A stretch of DNA of 64,000 bases, from sequence record NC_054903.1, one strand, 5' to 3'. Below, in pieces: positions 963-6,988 of this stretch (its first letter is position 1; each line of letters opens with the position of its first letter). The translations under genes were made by a program, and so were the position numbers. The notes under the pieces were generated by a model. It was not told the DNA's origin. It saw nothing but the letters and a program-made list of their open reading frames with translations, and ran no database searches. Source of the DNA: Enterobacteria phage GiZh.

Positions 963-1060
963 AGTGTTCTCCTCTATAAGATATTTTTATTATACCACAC
1001 TCATTTTGACATGTAAACCATAAAATGAAAAAAGGAATCCCGAAGGATTCCTTAAATTAT

Positions 1061-1318
1061 TTAACCACCTACACCAGGTGTAGGTGTAACAGTCCAAAGA
1101 CCTTCATTAGCAGTGATCCATTCAGTACGCTGATTTTCTTCATATACTGTAGAATATGCTGCTTTTTCAGAAGGGAATGTCTGATAATGAGCACCAGAAA
1201 TTTTGTGAACATCAGAATAAAGAGGGAAAGCTACAGAAATTTCTTTACCCTGAATTGTACCACCATCAACTGCTTGGTCAAATGTTTTGATATTAACATA
1301 ACCGCGAGTACTAGCCAT
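1061..1318 (-). CDS. soc: small outer capsid protein Soc
   Basis: MASTRGYVNIKTF...ISVAFPLYSDVHKISGAHYQTFPSEKAAYSTVYEENQRTEW matches recalled T4 Soc; ATG verified at 1318-1316. Confidence 0.9.
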   Translation of the reverse strand: MASTRGYVNIKTFDQAVDGGTIQGKEISVAFPLYSDVHKISGAHYQTFPSEKAAYSTVYEENQRTEWITANEGLWTVTPTPGVGG

Positions 1319-1334
1319 GTAATTCTCCTTTTAT

Positions 1335-1544
1335 TTAAATTACATGATTATTTATAATAAATTCTCGCGGAACGTTAAAATACCCGATTTTAGTTAATAT
1401 AACAACATCGCCGTTAATAATTACCGGAGAATAATCTTCTGGAGCATTAAATTTCCAATGGGCTCTAATATTATATCCATCAGAACCAAATGCTCGCGTA
1501 GCTGGTCTCCCAGCTTTTTGCCATGCGTAGAAATCAAATTTCAT
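1335..1544 (-). CDS. hypothetical protein (soc.1 position)
   Basis: 69-aa ORF between soc and gene 56; this interval holds soc.1/soc.2 in T2-type phages (segF in T4). Confidence 0.5.
   Translation of the reverse strand: MKFDFYAWQKAGRPATRAFGSDGYNIRAHWKFNAPEDYSPVIINGDVVILTKIGYFNVPREFIINNHVI
1349..1356 (-). promoter_or_regulatory. T4-type late promoter (TATAAATA on minus strand) upstream of soc
   Basis: plus-strand tatttata about 30 nt upstream of soc ATG; soc is a late gene in T4. Confidence 0.55.
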
Positions 1545-1735
1545 TTTGAATGCTCTATAATTAATTTTAAAGCTTCTTCACTGACAAAAATTTCGTCAGG
1601 ACCTTCTATAACTTCAACCATACGAAGTTGATTAGTTAAGAGCTCACATACGAGCTCCTTGTTATAATCTTTAAATAGCTGGTCAATACGTTTCTTATGG
1701 GCTTTCTTGAGCTGACGCTTATTTAAACGAGCCAT
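1541..1735 (-). CDS. hypothetical protein (soc.2 position)
   Basis: 64-aa ORF, overlapping stop/start junctions with neighbours. Confidence 0.5.
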   Translation of the reverse strand: MARLNKRQLKKAHKKRIDQLFKDYNKELVCELLTNQLRMVEVIEGPDEIFVSEEALKLIIEHSK

Positions 1736-2253
1736 TAATAACCTCGGTCTTGACGAGCGAAGTTTTCAGCATTTTTCAGATAATAAAGTTTAAATATTTC
1801 TTCAGCTGACATTCCAAGAGCAATGAATTTATTCATGAAAAAGTGAAATTGATCAATCAGTTCAAATTTAATTTCAAGCTGATCTTCAGGAGATAAATCT
1901 TGAATTTTCTTGGATTGCATTTCAGAATAACGTTTCTTCCAAGGTTTCCATACAGCAGAAGCTTCTTTTTCGCCATTACTCATACCACCGAGAGAAGTAT
2001 ATAGCTCGCGAGTTTCGTCTGCGATATAATCGTCTTGGTTTCGCAACCAAGCAAGAACTTCTCCCGCAGTTTCAAGTGAATCAGGATGACGATTTGTTTC
2101 TGGTTTATCATTAGCCAAACGAATCTGTAAATGCCGCTGCATGTCAAGCATAACCTGCAGTGGGTCAATATTGTGCATAATATTCTCAGCATATGCACGA
2201 TTTGCTTTATCAACACCTTCGATCAAATGAGCACATTCATTAAAGTAAGCCAT
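1735..2253 (-). CDS. 56: dCTP pyrophosphatase (dCTPase/dUTPase) gp56
   Basis: From internal ATG at 2253-2251 (RBS AAAGGAAA): MAYFNECAHLIEGVD...KNAENFARQDRGY, 172 aa, matches recalled T4 gp56; track N-terminal extension judged artifact. Confidence 0.85.
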   Translation of the reverse strand: MAYFNECAHLIEGVDKANRAYAENIMHNIDPLQVMLDMQRHLQIRLANDKPETNRHPDSLETAGEVLAWLRNQDDYIADETRELYTSLGGMSNGEKEASAVWKPWKKRYSEMQSKKIQDLSPEDQLEIKFELIDQFHFFMNKFIALGMSAEEIFKLYYLKNAENFARQDRGY

Positions 2254-2287
2254 TATTTTTCCTTTCAATTCATGGGTTAGTAGATTA

Positions 2288-2312
2288 ATTATACAATAAA
2301 TATATAAAGCAA
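2288..2312 (-). promoter_or_regulatory. candidate MotA-dependent middle promoter for gene 56
   Basis: minus-strand TTGCTTTA (MotA box) then ~11 nt then TATAAT, about 35 nt upstream of gene 56 ATG. Confidence 0.4.
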
Positions 2313-2324
2313 TAAGGAGGACAT

Positions 2325-2525
2325 ATGGTACAAAAATTAATGGCACTTGTTAATGCCATCAAAGGTAATAAGAAACGTATAGCTTTTACTATTTCTGCTA
2401 TGGTAGGAATTTTACTCTGGAACTTTATTTTATCACCAATTGCAATTGCACATGGTGTTAATATTCCAGTAGTTACTCTTGATACATTTGTAGATTTAGC
2501 ATTTGCTTTAGTTGGGTTAATTTAA
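2325..2525 (+). CDS. hypothetical small hydrophobic protein (opposite strand)
   Basis: ATG 2325 preceded by AAGGAGG at optimal spacing; 66 aa, hydrophobic; only plus-strand ORF with a strong RBS in the early region. Confidence 0.3.
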   Translation: MVQKLMALVNAIKGNKKRIAFTISAMVGILLWNFILSPIAIAHGVNIPVVTLDTFVDLAFALVGLI

Positions 2526-3550
2526 ATCTTAGCATATTTAGATAACCGCATTTTAGCCATCAACCCCTGGGCAATATTATTTTTCATATATTCCATAATT
2601 TGTTCAGGGGTTGCACCTTCCTTTCTAATCATATCATTAACATCTTTTGATTTCCAGGGAGATTTATCCCAAAACATAACCCTTTCTCCTGCATCAACTA
2701 ATTTAGTCATTCGCTTAATAGTGTCAGGATGACGAGGTTCATTATCTAAGACCCACACACGCCTATCTTTAAATGGAACAACTTCTAGGTCTAATTGACC
2801 ACCCGTAATAGCTATACCATTTTCAATAAAAAGTGAATCTATAGGTCCTTCTAAAACATATACATCACCATCTTTAACTCGTTCGACTCCATATATTTTT
2901 GTTGCCTCAGGATAAGCTTTGATGGTGATATATTTTTGAGGAGCATCTTTCTTTAATGCACGTCCTTGAAAAGACTCAGCTTTTCCATTAGCATTATAAA
3001 TTGGAATAACAAGACGAGGCTCAGAAATTTCCTTTTTGTATGTTCCCGGTGCTATGCTATTAACTAATTTAGGCCATTCAGTTGTAAACCAAAGATATTT
3101 CCATTTATCCTTTGGAATACAACGAGCTTTTACATATTTTATAATTGCATGGTCTTCCGCCAGTTTATCTAATCGAACACATGACGGAAGAGATTTAATT
3201 ATTTTCTTCTCAGGTTGTTTAGGAAGTTCTTTAGGTTTTTCTACTGGACGACTTTTACCTTTTTCTTTTCTTATTTCAAAGATATACTCACGATATAAAT
3301 CAGGTTCAAACTCCTTTAAATATATTCCGATTGGTGCATGATAGTTACAGTTATAACAATGAATATTTCCTTCATTATTATCACCATAATACCATCCACG
3401 AGCTTTATTCTGGTCGGTTTTTGAATCTCCACAAACAGGACATCTAAACCGTAATTTAAAAGTTGAACTATTATTTACTTGTGTGAATTTAGGTAAATGA
3501 GCTAATGCACGGTATGCAAACTCATTATCAATCCAAGGTATTGATGACAT
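2522..3550 (-). CDS. 61: DNA primase gp61
   Basis: 342 aa; MSSIPWIDNEFAYRALAHL..., zinc ribbon CPVCG...CYNC, TOPRIM-like VLDNEPRH; ATG verified at 3550-3548. Confidence 0.9.
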   Translation of the reverse strand: MSSIPWIDNEFAYRALAHLPKFTQVNNSSTFKLRFRCPVCGDSKTDQNKARGWYYGDNNEGNIHCYNCNYHAPIGIYLKEFEPDLYREYIFEIRKEKGKSRPVEKPKELPKQPEKKIIKSLPSCVRLDKLAEDHAIIKYVKARCIPKDKWKYLWFTTEWPKLVNSIAPGTYKKEISEPRLVIPIYNANGKAESFQGRALKKDAPQKYITIKAYPEATKIYGVERVKDGDVYVLEGPIDSLFIENGIAITGGQLDLEVVPFKDRRVWVLDNEPRHPDTIKRMTKLVDAGERVMFWDKSPWKSKDVNDMIRKEGATPEQIMEYMKNNIAQGLMAKMRLSKYAKI

Positions 3551-3713
3551 TTTTACTCTTCTTTTTCTTTAGATTCCTCTTTTTTTTAGGAATCTGTTCA
3601 GGACCTTTATTTACTACAGCGCCTGATGTTGTTCCAGTAGAGATATTTTCAGGATTACCACCTGAATCTCCAGCTACCATATCTTCTTTAATAAATTCTT
3701 TATATGTTTTCAT
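3528..3713 (-). CDS. small basic protein with capsid-targeting-like N-terminus
   Basis: ATG 3713-3711 with AGAGGT RBS; N-terminus MKTYKEFIKE; C-terminal KKKRNLKKKKSKN; 23-nt out-of-frame overlap with gene 61 start. Confidence 0.5.
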   Translation of the reverse strand: MKTYKEFIKEDMVAGDSGGNPENISTGTTSGAVVNKGPEQIPKKKRNLKKKKSKNVINTLD

Positions 3714-3714
3714 A

Positions 3715-4071
3715 TTAACCTCTATTCATAAAAGCATTAAAAATTTGGTCATCAATAGATGGAATAGCAACCTTTTCGGCATCATTTAGCAAATCATTAA
3801 TTTCATCAGATAGCATAACACATGTGCCTTTATTTCCTGTAATTGTTACTGCGCAATTACGAACGTTTTCTTTATCAAATTTTAGGTTAATATTTTCGTA
3901 GTGAAAATCCTTTAATGCCGAATATATCTTTAAAATGAAATTGTCTTTTACTACAATAAACCCAACCTCACTATTAAAACGCGGTTCATGGAAACTGTAA
4001 TAAACCTTTTCATCTATAAAATCGTATGAAATTTTTTCCATTTTTAAATATGAAAATTCAGAACTATACAT
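3715..4071 (-). CDS. hypothetical protein (61.1 position)
   Basis: 118 aa; ATG verified; C-terminus SIDDQIFNAFMNRG shared with next gene. Confidence 0.55.
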   Translation of the reverse strand: MYSSEFSYLKMEKISYDFIDEKVYYSFHEPRFNSEVGFIVVKDNFILKIYSALKDFHYENINLKFDKENVRNCAVTITGNKGTCVMLSDEINDLLNDAEKVAIPSIDDQIFNAFMNRG

Positions 4072-4072
4072 A

Positions 4073-4705
4073 TTAACCTTTATTCATAAAAGCATTAAAA
4101 ATTTGATCGTCAATAGAAACTTTTACTTTAGGCTGTTCTTCAAACGGTAATTCATATCCACATATTACAATTTTGTGATCGATACCAAAATACACAGAAG
4201 CAATATTATTAATATTATTTTCAGTGAAATCTAAATCAACATCAATATCTTTTTGACTAACGCTCAAAGGATAATTAATACGAATAATTCGATTATCTTT
4301 AACAAAGATTCCACCGACATACTCTGTGCTGCGTTTAAAGTTTACACGTTTCCTAAATGAAAAATATTCAGGTTCTTTATGCGCTCGACTCATAGGGCTT
4401 AAAGTGTATTCCGAATATGAAATATCAAATCCTACACCTTCAATATGAGCCAAAGTGTCATGATTAAACCAATTATAATCGTATGCCAAATCCATTAAAT
4501 TGTAATATGTGAAAGGCACCGGATTAACATCATATGTTGTACCTTTAAAATCTGCCCAGGCAACGATTTCGTTATCTTTAACAATTACAAAAATTGTGCC
4601 AATAAGATATCCACGGTTATTTTCATCAGGTGTTATATTATAACATTGTGCATCAGGAAATTTACCGTATTTAAACGGTGGATTTTTGTGCATATAATAA
4701 ATCAT
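4073..4705 (-). CDS. hypothetical protein (61.2 position), two internal repeats of a VKDN module
   Basis: 210 aa; ATG verified; GTIFVIVKDNEIV and GGIFVKDNRIIRI modules; C-terminus SIDDQIFNAFMNKG. Confidence 0.55.
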   Translation of the reverse strand: MIYYMHKNPPFKYGKFPDAQCYNITPDENNRGYLIGTIFVIVKDNEIVAWADFKGTTYDVNPVPFTYYNLMDLAYDYNWFNHDTLAHIEGVGFDISYSEYTLSPMSRAHKEPEYFSFRKRVNFKRSTEYVGGIFVKDNRIIRINYPLSVSQKDIDVDLDFTENNINNIASVYFGIDHKIVICGYELPFEEQPKVKVSIDDQIFNAFMNKG

Positions 4706-5531: not shown

Positions 5532-5561
5532 ACTATACCATAGTCTTGTCAGCTTGTAAAC
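5532..5561 (-). promoter_or_regulatory. T4-type early promoter upstream of dmd
   Basis: minus strand: AT-rich UP, GTTTACA, 17-nt spacer, TATAGT. Confidence 0.5.
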
Positions 5562-6988
5562 TAAAATTTTAATTCATTTGCCAAAGCATCTAACTGAGCT
5601 CGAGCGGATTCGTTTCTTTGATAGCGATTCTGTTCAGCCTGAATCTGCTGTGAACCTGCTACTTCGTTCACTTCAGTTGGAGTAGAATCTTGTTCAATTT
5701 CTACCCATTTTTGATTTCCTTTTTGAACACCCATCAAAAACTTATTCCACTTATTCTTATCACCATATCGTGATTTGATTTGCTTAATAAGTTGTTGTTC
5801 AGCAGCTGCCAACTCCTCGGTTTCAATGACCGCAAGCATAAAATCGGCTGTCGCTGGAAGACCAGCAGATTCTGCGATATCACTCATGTTAACATCAGAA
5901 GAATCCCAAGCTTGTTTACCAACCTGTGCTGCAGTCCAAAGAACAGTTTCGGTTTCAACAGCAAGAGCACGCAATTCCTCTGCAATAGCTTTAACAGTTG
6001 TGTAACTATTTTCTGAATAAACTCTAATGCGGCAAGATTTACAAATACCTAGATAGTCGACAATAATGATTGTTGGAACAAAATTCTTTTTGAGCTTCAA
6101 TTCATTCAAGAGAGACCTGAATGTGTTAGCATCTGCTCCACCAGTAGGGTACTGTTTAACGATTAAACGACCAAGAGTAGATTTCTCACGCCATTTTTCC
6201 ATTTTTCCTTTATACTCAGCGTAAGAAATATGTCCATCATCAATATCGTCAAGAGAAACATCGAGCATGTTAGCATCAATACGTTTAGCACAGACTTCTT
6301 CTGCCATTTCCATGGAAATGTAAAGAACATTATGTCCGAGCTGTAAATAATCTGCTGCCAATGAACACAATCCTAATGACTTACCAACGTTAACGCCAGC
6401 CATTAAAACGTTCAGCGTTCCAGTTTCAGCTCCGCCTTTCGTAATTTTGTTTAGAATTCTGAGTTTAAATGGAACCTTACGAGCTTTATTCATATAAGAT
6501 AGCCAACGTGCTTCGTAGTCATCCATCCAATCATGACCAACGTAGCTATCAAATGAAATTGATAATGCTTGACGCATGATGTCAGGAATAGCACCAACAT
6601 CCGGCATTTTCTTATTTCGTTTTTCCGGAGGAAGCTCAGCATTAGTTTGAATTTCGATTATTTTAGACGTAGCATTAAACATCGCCCTTTGCTGAACATA
6701 TTTTTCTGTTTCTTTTACTAACCAGCTGTGGTCTTCTGGAGAATCGGCTAGTTTTGAAATAAGTGTTTTTACACCAGAATATTCCGTTTCAGTAAATGAA
6801 CTATTTTCTAATGCAACATTTAACGCATTAATAGATGGAACGCTATGATACTCATTAACATGAGATTTAATTAATTTGAATGTATTTTTAGCTGGACCAC
6901 TTTCAAAATATTCTGAATCCATATATGGCCAAACTTTTGAAAAATAAGCTTGATCAAATATGAGATGAGAAAGAATAATTTCTACCAC
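5561..6988 (-). CDS. 41: replicative DNA helicase gp41 (DnaB-like)
   Basis: 475 aa; Walker A GVNVGKS; MVEIILSHLIFDQAYF...; apparent GTG start. Confidence 0.95.
   Translation of the reverse strand: MVEIILSHLIFDQAYFSKVWPYMDSEYFESGPAKNTFKLIKSHVNEYHSVPSINALNVALENSSFTETEYSGVKTLISKLADSPEDHSWLVKETEKYVQQRAMFNATSKIIEIQTNAELPPEKRNKKMPDVGAIPDIMRQALSISFDSYVGHDWMDDYEARWLSYMNKARKVPFKLRILNKITKGGAETGTLNVLMAGVNVGKSLGLCSLAADYLQLGHNVLYISMEMAEEVCAKRIDANMLDVSLDDIDDGHISYAEYKGKMEKWREKSTLGRLIVKQYPTGGADANTFRSLLNELKLKKNFVPTIIIVDYLGICKSCRIRVYSENSYTTVKAIAEELRALAVETETVLWTAAQVGKQAWDSSDVNMSDIAESAGLPATADFMLAVIETEELAAAEQQLIKQIKSRYGDKNKWNKFLMGVQKGNQKWVEIEQDSTPTEVNEVAGSQQIQAEQNRYQRNESARAQLDALANELKF

Follow-up and report, generated by a model that had tools for sequence, protein, structure and literature searches.

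The junction between genes 56 and 61 raises two questions in Enterobacteria phage GiZh. One is whether the lack of dam at this place sets the phage apart from its relatives, and the other is whether the small open reading frame (ORF) that lies there on the opposite strand is a gene. Both were addressed in a 64-kb stretch of the phage DNA, referred to here as the window and used for all positions that carry no accession number; its source is a Tequatrovirus, a T-even-type (T4-like) phage. We are fairly confident that the locus represents a variable slot, lying between genes 56 and 61, in its common form without dam, combined with a conserved small gene on the opposite strand. Hundreds of genomes already carry annotations of this arrangement and of the ORF, and the finding is largely an ordinary one. 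The remaining interest lies in an annotation that is missing from T4 and in the nesting of a predicted middle promoter and a candidate late promoter on opposite strands of the same DNA.

Organization of the 56-61 junction

The left border of the junction is gene 56 (dCTPase/dUTPase, 172 codons), which was recognized from the ORF list and from its homology to gene 56 of T4 and T2 and which occupies 1735..2253 on the minus strand, its ATG being read on that strand at 2253-2251. The right border is gene 61 (DNA primase, 342 codons; 2522..3550, minus strand), taken from the ORF list and near-identical to T4 gp61, with its stop codon at 2524-2522. The interval between them measures 268 bp (2254..2521), in agreement with the spacing of about 270 bp given in a preliminary description of this DNA, and represents the dam-less form of a variable insertion slot. 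The plus-strand hydrophobic ORF of 66 amino acids and its AAGGAGG ribosome binding site, both noticed in the same description, are found in the sequence as well. The ORF extends over 2325..2525 (ATG at 2325, TAA at 2523-2525), belongs to the protein family phrog_2024 and converges on gene 61. Its Shine-Dalgarno sequence AAGGAGG lies at 2314..2320 on the plus strand, 4 nt before the ATG, and has one base in common with a MotA box on the opposite strand.

On the far side of gene 56, the ORF list gives two small ORFs (1335-1544 and 1541-1735) and soc (1061-1318), all on the minus strand, which also carries the helicase gene 41 further to the right (5561-6988). The nearest relatives over positions 1000-3600 are phages JLBYU31 and JLBYU24 (99.2%), and phage wV7 is 100% identical to the window over 2254-2525.

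Comparison with T4 and T2

According to the RefSeq record of T4 (NC_000866), the gene order is soc, segF, 56, dam, an unannotated gap of 309 bp and 61, while the T2 record (LC348380) has soc, two small ORFs, 56, dam, an ORF of 181 amino acids, a gap and 61. It had been claimed that T4 carries dam in the neighbourhood of genes 56 and 61, and an alignment with the T4 and T2 regions had been proposed as a check. The comparison places dam in the slot, between 56 and 61, in both phages, and reveals in both a shared ORF that abuts gene 61. Over these regions (NC_000866 16.2-19.0 kb; LC348380), T4, T2 and the window share gene 56, gene 61, a MotA-type promoter and the 66-amino-acid ORF at about 95-97% identity. 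The difference resides in what separates the promoter from the ORF: in T4 alone dam (780 bp) and about 110 bp that include a 20-codon gene remnant, in T2 dam and the intact 181-amino-acid ORF, and in the window nothing.

An intact copy of the 66-codon ORF, differing from that of the window by 2 or 3 amino acids, lies in each of the gaps left unannotated in T4 and T2. The T4 copy is located at NC_000866.4 17738-17938 with AAAGGAGG ahead of it, at a place where RefSeq has no feature, and in the T2 record LC348380 the ORF is likewise unannotated. Because these gaps hold the same intact ORF, it cannot be regarded as a substitute for dam. The preliminary description had set the small ORF "where T4 carries dam", a view that has to be abandoned: T4 and T2 have this ORF (95-97% protein identity) beside gene 61, and their dam sits between the ORF and gene 56.

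Gene 69 had also been placed at this junction. This is a name of 1984 for what was a fused reading of the present gene 56 and segF, as a comparison of X01416 with RefSeq reveals, and it therefore belongs to the side of gene 56 and soc rather than to the interval between 56 and 61. In T4, segF stands between gene 56 and soc, whereas the window has two small ORFs there instead, as T2 does; no segF homolog was found by tblastn in the 64-kb window, and T2 is also without segF. As for oriA, which had been put in the same neighbourhood, the T4 RefSeq record marks it at the 5′ end of gene 56, with a note that the transcript of gene 56 serves as primer RNA; the homologous promoter is kept in the window.

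The additional ORF of T2 deserves a remark of its own. This 181-amino-acid ORF (T2_032; LC348380 16006-16551, minus strand) corresponds to phrog_8706, and T4 keeps only its last 20 codons. In Pfam, it scores weakly and below threshold against DpnII, a restriction endonuclease (E 0.0096), and against further families of restriction enzymes; a D...E-I-K stretch is also present, and a comparison with the PDB gave no meaningful match. It is a possibility, suggested by these sequence features, that the dam insert descended from a GATC restriction-modification pair.

Occupancy of the slot and absence of Dam

When the 272-bp interval was used as a blastn query, 516 phage records were matched. In 333 of them (about 65%), a single match extends over 80% or more of the interval, so that the ORF has no insert beside it, and the remaining 183 match only from the Shine-Dalgarno sequence onward. 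A T4-type Dam at 90% identity or more was found in 182 records (tblastn with T4 Dam), a number close to that of the 183 records in which only the ORF part is matched. Outside Tequatrovirus, nothing is inserted in RB69 (Mosigvirus) or in EAWsc9 (Gaprivervirus), where the order is simply 56, ORF, 61. The slot of the Karamvirus CkP1 carries a 101-amino-acid fragment that resembles a gene 56-type pyrophosphohydrolase, and in fPS-90 the compact promoter-ORF block is kept with a homing endonuclease between this block and gene 56. The 56-61 slot is thus a hot spot for optional cargo; in most records it is empty, and this condition is probably also the more ancient. The compact junction is no oddity, being shared by the 333 records without insert and by RB69 and a Gaprivervirus.

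The CkP1 fragment matches the C-terminal half of the nucleoside triphosphate pyrophosphohydrolase family phrog_4856 (E 4.9e-36). Judged by this match, part of a gene for an enzyme of the gene 56 type seems to have been duplicated beside gene 56.

On this explanation, the junction has four fixed parts, which in the direction of early transcription are the gene 61 end, a hairpin that is strand-specific and resembles a terminator, the predicted MotA middle promoter and gene 56. In T4 and T2, dam, or dam together with a second ORF, is inserted between the small gene and the gene 56 promoter.

No Dam homolog was detected in the 64-kb window with T4 and T2 Dam as tblastn queries (best E 0.37), and T2_032 likewise has no homolog that tblastn could detect in the window. 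The closest complete genome over the window is that of PaulHMueller/Bas45, with about 93-98% identity in collinear blocks; tblastn against this whole genome gave no Dam match at E≤1, and no methyltransferase is annotated in it. Since Dam is missing from the window as well as from the genome of this relative, the source phage very probably lacks Dam genome-wide. The lack of Dam considered in the preliminary description, for which it suggested a search of the rest of the genome, is in this way upheld at the slot itself, over the 64-kb window and over the complete genome of Bas45.

It may be asked whether the compact junction arose in GiZh by a recent deletion of dam, in which case it would be an unusual derived state that affects DNA modification. 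Both reference phages, T4 and T2, have dam at this place, Dam homologs are present in other Tevenvirinae such as RB43 and Klebsiella phages, and the 20-codon remnant in T4 of the ORF that neighbours dam in T2 indicates that deletions do happen in the slot. We nevertheless find such a deletion improbable, given the prevalence of records with no insert beside the ORF, the empty junctions of RB69 and EAWsc9, and a window in which there is no remnant of either dam or T2_032. Moreover, the late box and the MotA box stand in opposite order in the compact and the T4-type forms, so that a single deletion cannot turn one form into the other. The common dam-less form of a variable slot is therefore the explanation that we retain, and with dam as an optional insert and the compact junction as the majority state, a "missing dam" tells little about GiZh itself. 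T-even dam mutants are viable. Without a Dam of its own the phage would not methylate GATC sites, of which the 64-kb window has only 85.

GATC is in fact the most depleted 4-base palindrome of the window, with those 85 occurrences against 200 expected (ratio 0.43). In the dam-less genome of Bas45, 198 GATC sites were observed against 568 expected (ratio 0.35).

Coding evidence for the small ORF

In T4, T2, RB69, CkP1 and EAWsc9 the small ORF always lies on the strand opposite to gene 61 and beside its 3′ end. The ends of the two reading frames overlap by 4 nt at the gene 61 stop in the window, T4, T2, RB69 and CkP1, and in EAWsc9 the ORF is adjacent to gene 61. The protein matches the phrog_2024 profile with an E value of 1.5e-31, its residues 2-66 being aligned with positions 1-65 of the 65 in the profile, and it is 100% identical to wV7 AEM00694, the note of which cites RB32ORF030w. 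From the family of RB32ORF030w and RB69ORF029w it shows no substantial difference, agreeing with it in length, in placement and direction with respect to gene 61, and in having a predicted transmembrane segment. By tblastn, the ORF is intact (at least 80% coverage) in 690 of the 697 phage records matched. The amino-acid identity falls to 54% with RB69 ORF029w, to 46% with the Gaprivervirus EAWsc9 and to 31% with the Karamvirus CkP1.

One could argue that the plus-strand ORF is no gene at all, and that the interval is kept as the 3′ untranslated region or terminator of gene 61 and as the promoter of gene 56, with the open frame as a by-product. A strand-specific hairpin with a U tract does lie on the minus strand inside the ORF. 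A minus-strand frame (2346-2521) past the gene 61 stop also runs for about 65 codons without a stop codon, and it does the same in RB69. The T4 RefSeq record and one T2 record leave the ORF unannotated, and no transcript, ribosome-profiling or proteomic evidence for it in any phage was found in the literature searched, in which the names of the ORF, T4 ribosome profiling and T4 start sites likewise led to nothing relevant.

However, the pattern of substitutions speaks for selection on the plus-strand frame. A comparison of the window with the RB69 ORF gives 34 identical bases of 65 at the first codon position, 53 at the second and 26 at the third, so that the second position is the best conserved, and dN/dS is about 0.17, below the value of every other frame, although a part of this conservation signal is common to the antisense shadow frame. 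Within Tequatrovirus, 7, 2 and 12 sites are variable at the three codon positions and dN/dS is 0.1-0.3, and the only indels seen in the ORF are in-frame deletions of three codons (two variants). In three other genera the protein is still recognizable although the DNA has lost almost all similarity, the only blastn match there being a piece of 86 nt at 77-78%. T4, T2, RB69, CkP1 and EAWsc9 retain AGGAGG or AAGGAG, and all five contexts have a strong Shine-Dalgarno sequence together with an ATG. RB69 furthermore keeps the ORF without having the hairpin. A by-product frame is for these reasons very unlikely in our estimation, and the conservation by codon position together with the intactness of the ORF in nearly all matched records indicates that it is a real gene.

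A minus-strand gene in the frame that follows the gene 61 stop was considered and rejected, as this frame has no start codon, no Shine-Dalgarno sequence and a dN/dS of 0.38. We interpret it as an antisense shadow frame of the small gene, with which it shares wobble positions.

The small gene is conserved across at least four genera of Tevenvirinae and yet is absent from the T4 RefSeq record. Omics studies that rely on this record overlook it.

The middle promoter of gene 56 and its relation to oriA

A MotA/AsiA middle promoter of gene 56 is predicted at 2288..2314 on the minus strand from its consensus and from T4 homology. It is composed of the MotA box TATTGCTTTA (2314..2305), a spacer of 11 nt and the -10 element TATAAT (2293..2288). 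The consensus reported for such promoters is a MotA box wwwTGCTTtA at 12±1 bp from a sigma-70 -10 element TAtaaT (PMC2988021); TATTGCTTTA matches the box in 10 of 10 positions, and the spacing fits. The suggestion of a candidate MotA-type promoter for gene 56 is thus well founded in box, 11-nt spacing and TATAAT, as a prediction from sequence.

The promoter segment aligns base for base, and over the same length of 60 nt, with the region between dam and 56 in T4 and T2, which is why we regard the gene 56/oriA promoter as retained. At the corresponding place, directly after dam, the record X01416 of 1984 annotates the mot-box and the -10 element of P(M)16.53, and the fPS-90 record has a "predicted middle promoter" on the identical sequence. 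By this alignment, the predicted promoter is the positional homolog of the oriA-associated P(M)16.53 of T4. The two have the MotA box, the 11-nt spacer and TATAAT at the same position before gene 56 and differ at most positions of the spacer, which in the window, unlike in T4, encodes a candidate late box on the other strand. By homology with T4, MotA/AsiA-dependent initiation and oriA priming would take place at the window promoter.

A candidate late promoter on the opposite strand

The candidate late box AATAAATA, an A(-13) variant of TATAAATA, lies at 2295..2302 on the plus strand, 22 nt before the ATG of the small ORF. It is situated within the spacer of the opposite-strand middle promoter and is the reverse complement of the spacer sequence, so the two putative promoters occupy the same DNA on opposite strands. 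A late promoter needs no -35 element and is recognized by its 8-bp box, TATAAATA, which precedes the transcription start by about one helical turn. Compared with the late promoters of T4 (gp55/gp33/gp45, TATAAATA), the box in the window has the 8 bp and a typical distance before a clockwise-strand gene, but as an A(-13) variant it is imperfect and matches the consensus in 7 of 8 positions. A(-13) is found in 9 of 50 listed T4 late promoters and is the commonest variant class (PMC2988020).

A box of the form NATAAATA (ATAAATA core, variable -13) starts 24-30 nt before the ATG in T4, T2, RB69 and EAWsc9, and the sequences that flank these boxes are not homologous. The base at -13 is G in T4 and T2 and C in EAWsc9, neither of which is the common variant. 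The location also differs, the late box lying inside the middle-promoter spacer in the window and between dam and the ORF in T4 and T2. That the core recurs before the ATG in spite of unrelated flanks and a differing order of boxes argues for selection that keeps a late promoter before the ORF.

The polarity of transcription leads in the same direction. All early and middle transcripts of T4 run counterclockwise, and only late transcripts may have either polarity (Geiduschek and Kassavetis, PMC2988020). With early and middle transcripts running the other way, the plus-strand ORF could only be a late gene, and the sequence thus points to late expression of the small gene. A sigma-70 promoter for the ORF was considered and rejected, none being found by a pattern scan on the plus strand upstream of it. 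The literature examined reports no late promoter at the site in the window or at the corresponding RB69 site; for the latter, the HMM scan of Nolan et al. (PMC1524935) lists the strong middle promoter Pm:16038 and no late promoter.

We propose that transcription of the junction would proceed leftward, into gene 56, in the middle period, and that late in infection it would start from the AATAAATA box and proceed rightward into the small gene. If this is true, the same stretch of about 27 bp switches transcription from leftward (middle) to rightward (late) in phages with the compact junction. The late transcript would then run antisense into the primase gene, and a pattern scan found no plus-strand terminator after the ORF. 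Overlapping middle and late promoters on opposite strands would offer a compact and testable case of temporal promoter competition by a replication origin.

The motif WATAAATA is scarce in the 64-kb window, with only 5 occurrences on the plus strand. On both strands together 15 occurrences were found against 25±5 expected, with 15 or more in 100 of 100 shuffles, a depletion that is consistent with selection against stray late promoters. One of the minus-strand occurrences lies 30 nt before the start of soc, where X01416 places a putative late promoter.

A terminator-like hairpin downstream of gene 61

A pattern scan detected a terminator-like hairpin followed by TTTTTG at 2331..2362 on the minus strand (stem-loop 2362..2337), within codons 5-13 of the small ORF. 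The minus-strand RNA folds with -12.4 kcal/mol (z -3.75), and none of 200 shuffled sequences was as stable, whereas the plus-strand RNA of the same region reaches only -6.8 (z -0.5). The stem has 11 pairs, of which only 3 are G-C and 2 are G-U, and is followed by UUUUUG. The T4 version is less stable at -8.9 and RB69 has no equivalent; the fPS-90 record annotates the hairpin as a terminator. From these folds, it is plausible that the hairpin, which closely precedes the gene 56 promoter, acts as a weak terminator for transcripts of gene 61. Termination here is uncertain because the hairpin is weak, with its 3 G-C pairs, and absent in RB69.

The predicted small protein

An alignment of 17 relatives has the invariant residues L8, K16, W32, N33, P38, G44 and P48 and a core motif G-I-x-x-W-N-[FY]...P...A-[HNY]-G...P. 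The N-terminal 18 residues include five positive charges, hydropathy peaks over residues 19-41 and 45-66, and the C-terminus (...AFALVGLI) is hydrophobic and uncharged. The AlphaFold2 model (mean pLDDT 79) consists of helices at 2-14, 16-42 and 52-63. For RB69ORF029w, a transmembrane segment has been predicted at residues 21-41 (Nolan et al. 2006 supplement, PMC1524935). On the basis of this modelling, the product is likely an inner-membrane protein with a cytoplasmic N-terminus, one certain span (about 19-42) and a short, acidic and hydrophobic C-terminal helix.

Homology searches kept the protein within its own group. There was no match in Pfam (E≤1) or NCBIfam, and its PHROG family is without functional label. 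A HMMER search of 1.8 billion cluster representatives returned only close relatives and a few long proteins; the latter (1,255-1,822 amino acids) were rejected as homologs, their matches being scattered over 5 to 14 separate stretches and read as compositional. In a profile search of 5.8 billion proteins, all matches fell within the Tevenvirinae, a scan of IMG/VR gave only 7 loci, and a structure search against viral models gave nothing beyond the protein's own family.

Some records name the protein a holin, and a holin or pinholin would indeed be small and hydrophobic with one or two hydrophobic segments, as this protein is, and its late expression would be plausible. With class II holins and pinholins it has in common a length of about 65 amino acids, the hydrophobicity and the possible late expression. 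Yet these have a charged C-terminal tail and a lysis cassette, while the small protein has neither, its C-terminus being hydrophobic and its neighbours being the replication genes 56 and 61 rather than lysis genes. Where two spans would be expected, it has one certain transmembrane helix and a C-terminal helix of 12 residues. No holin family in Pfam, NCBIfam or the PHROGs is matched, and the structural search, as stated above, recovered only its own family. Bas45, moreover, already encodes a T-type holin, spanins and the lysis-inhibition proteins rI and rIII elsewhere. The holin name stands on one UniRef and one GenBank entry, and a further record labels the protein "head morphogenesis protein"; both names look like propagated automatic labels. 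We regard a holin or pinholin as highly improbable and keep to the reading of an inner-membrane protein with one certain span. Our best guess, held with low confidence, would be a role late at the inner membrane, for example in lysis timing, an envelope function or exclusion.

Taken further, it is conceivable, and we offer it only tentatively, that T4, T2, RB69 and their relatives encode a small late inner-membrane protein overlooked in the reference annotation, that in the compact-junction phages nested promoters switch the direction of transcription, and that its role concerns lysis, the envelope or exclusion.

Adjacent gp61.2-like ORFs

Beyond gene 61, the window has two adjacent minus-strand ORFs, at 3715-4071 (118 amino acids) and 4073-4705 (210 amino acids), which are gp61.2-like according to the wV7 annotation. 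T4 has only one 61.2 gene at this position. The C-terminal peptides of the two ORFs are almost identical, S-I-D-D-Q-I-F-N-A-F-M-N-[RK]-G, and a repeat of about 30 nt is found at the two 3′ ends (near 3715-3750 and near 4073-4108).
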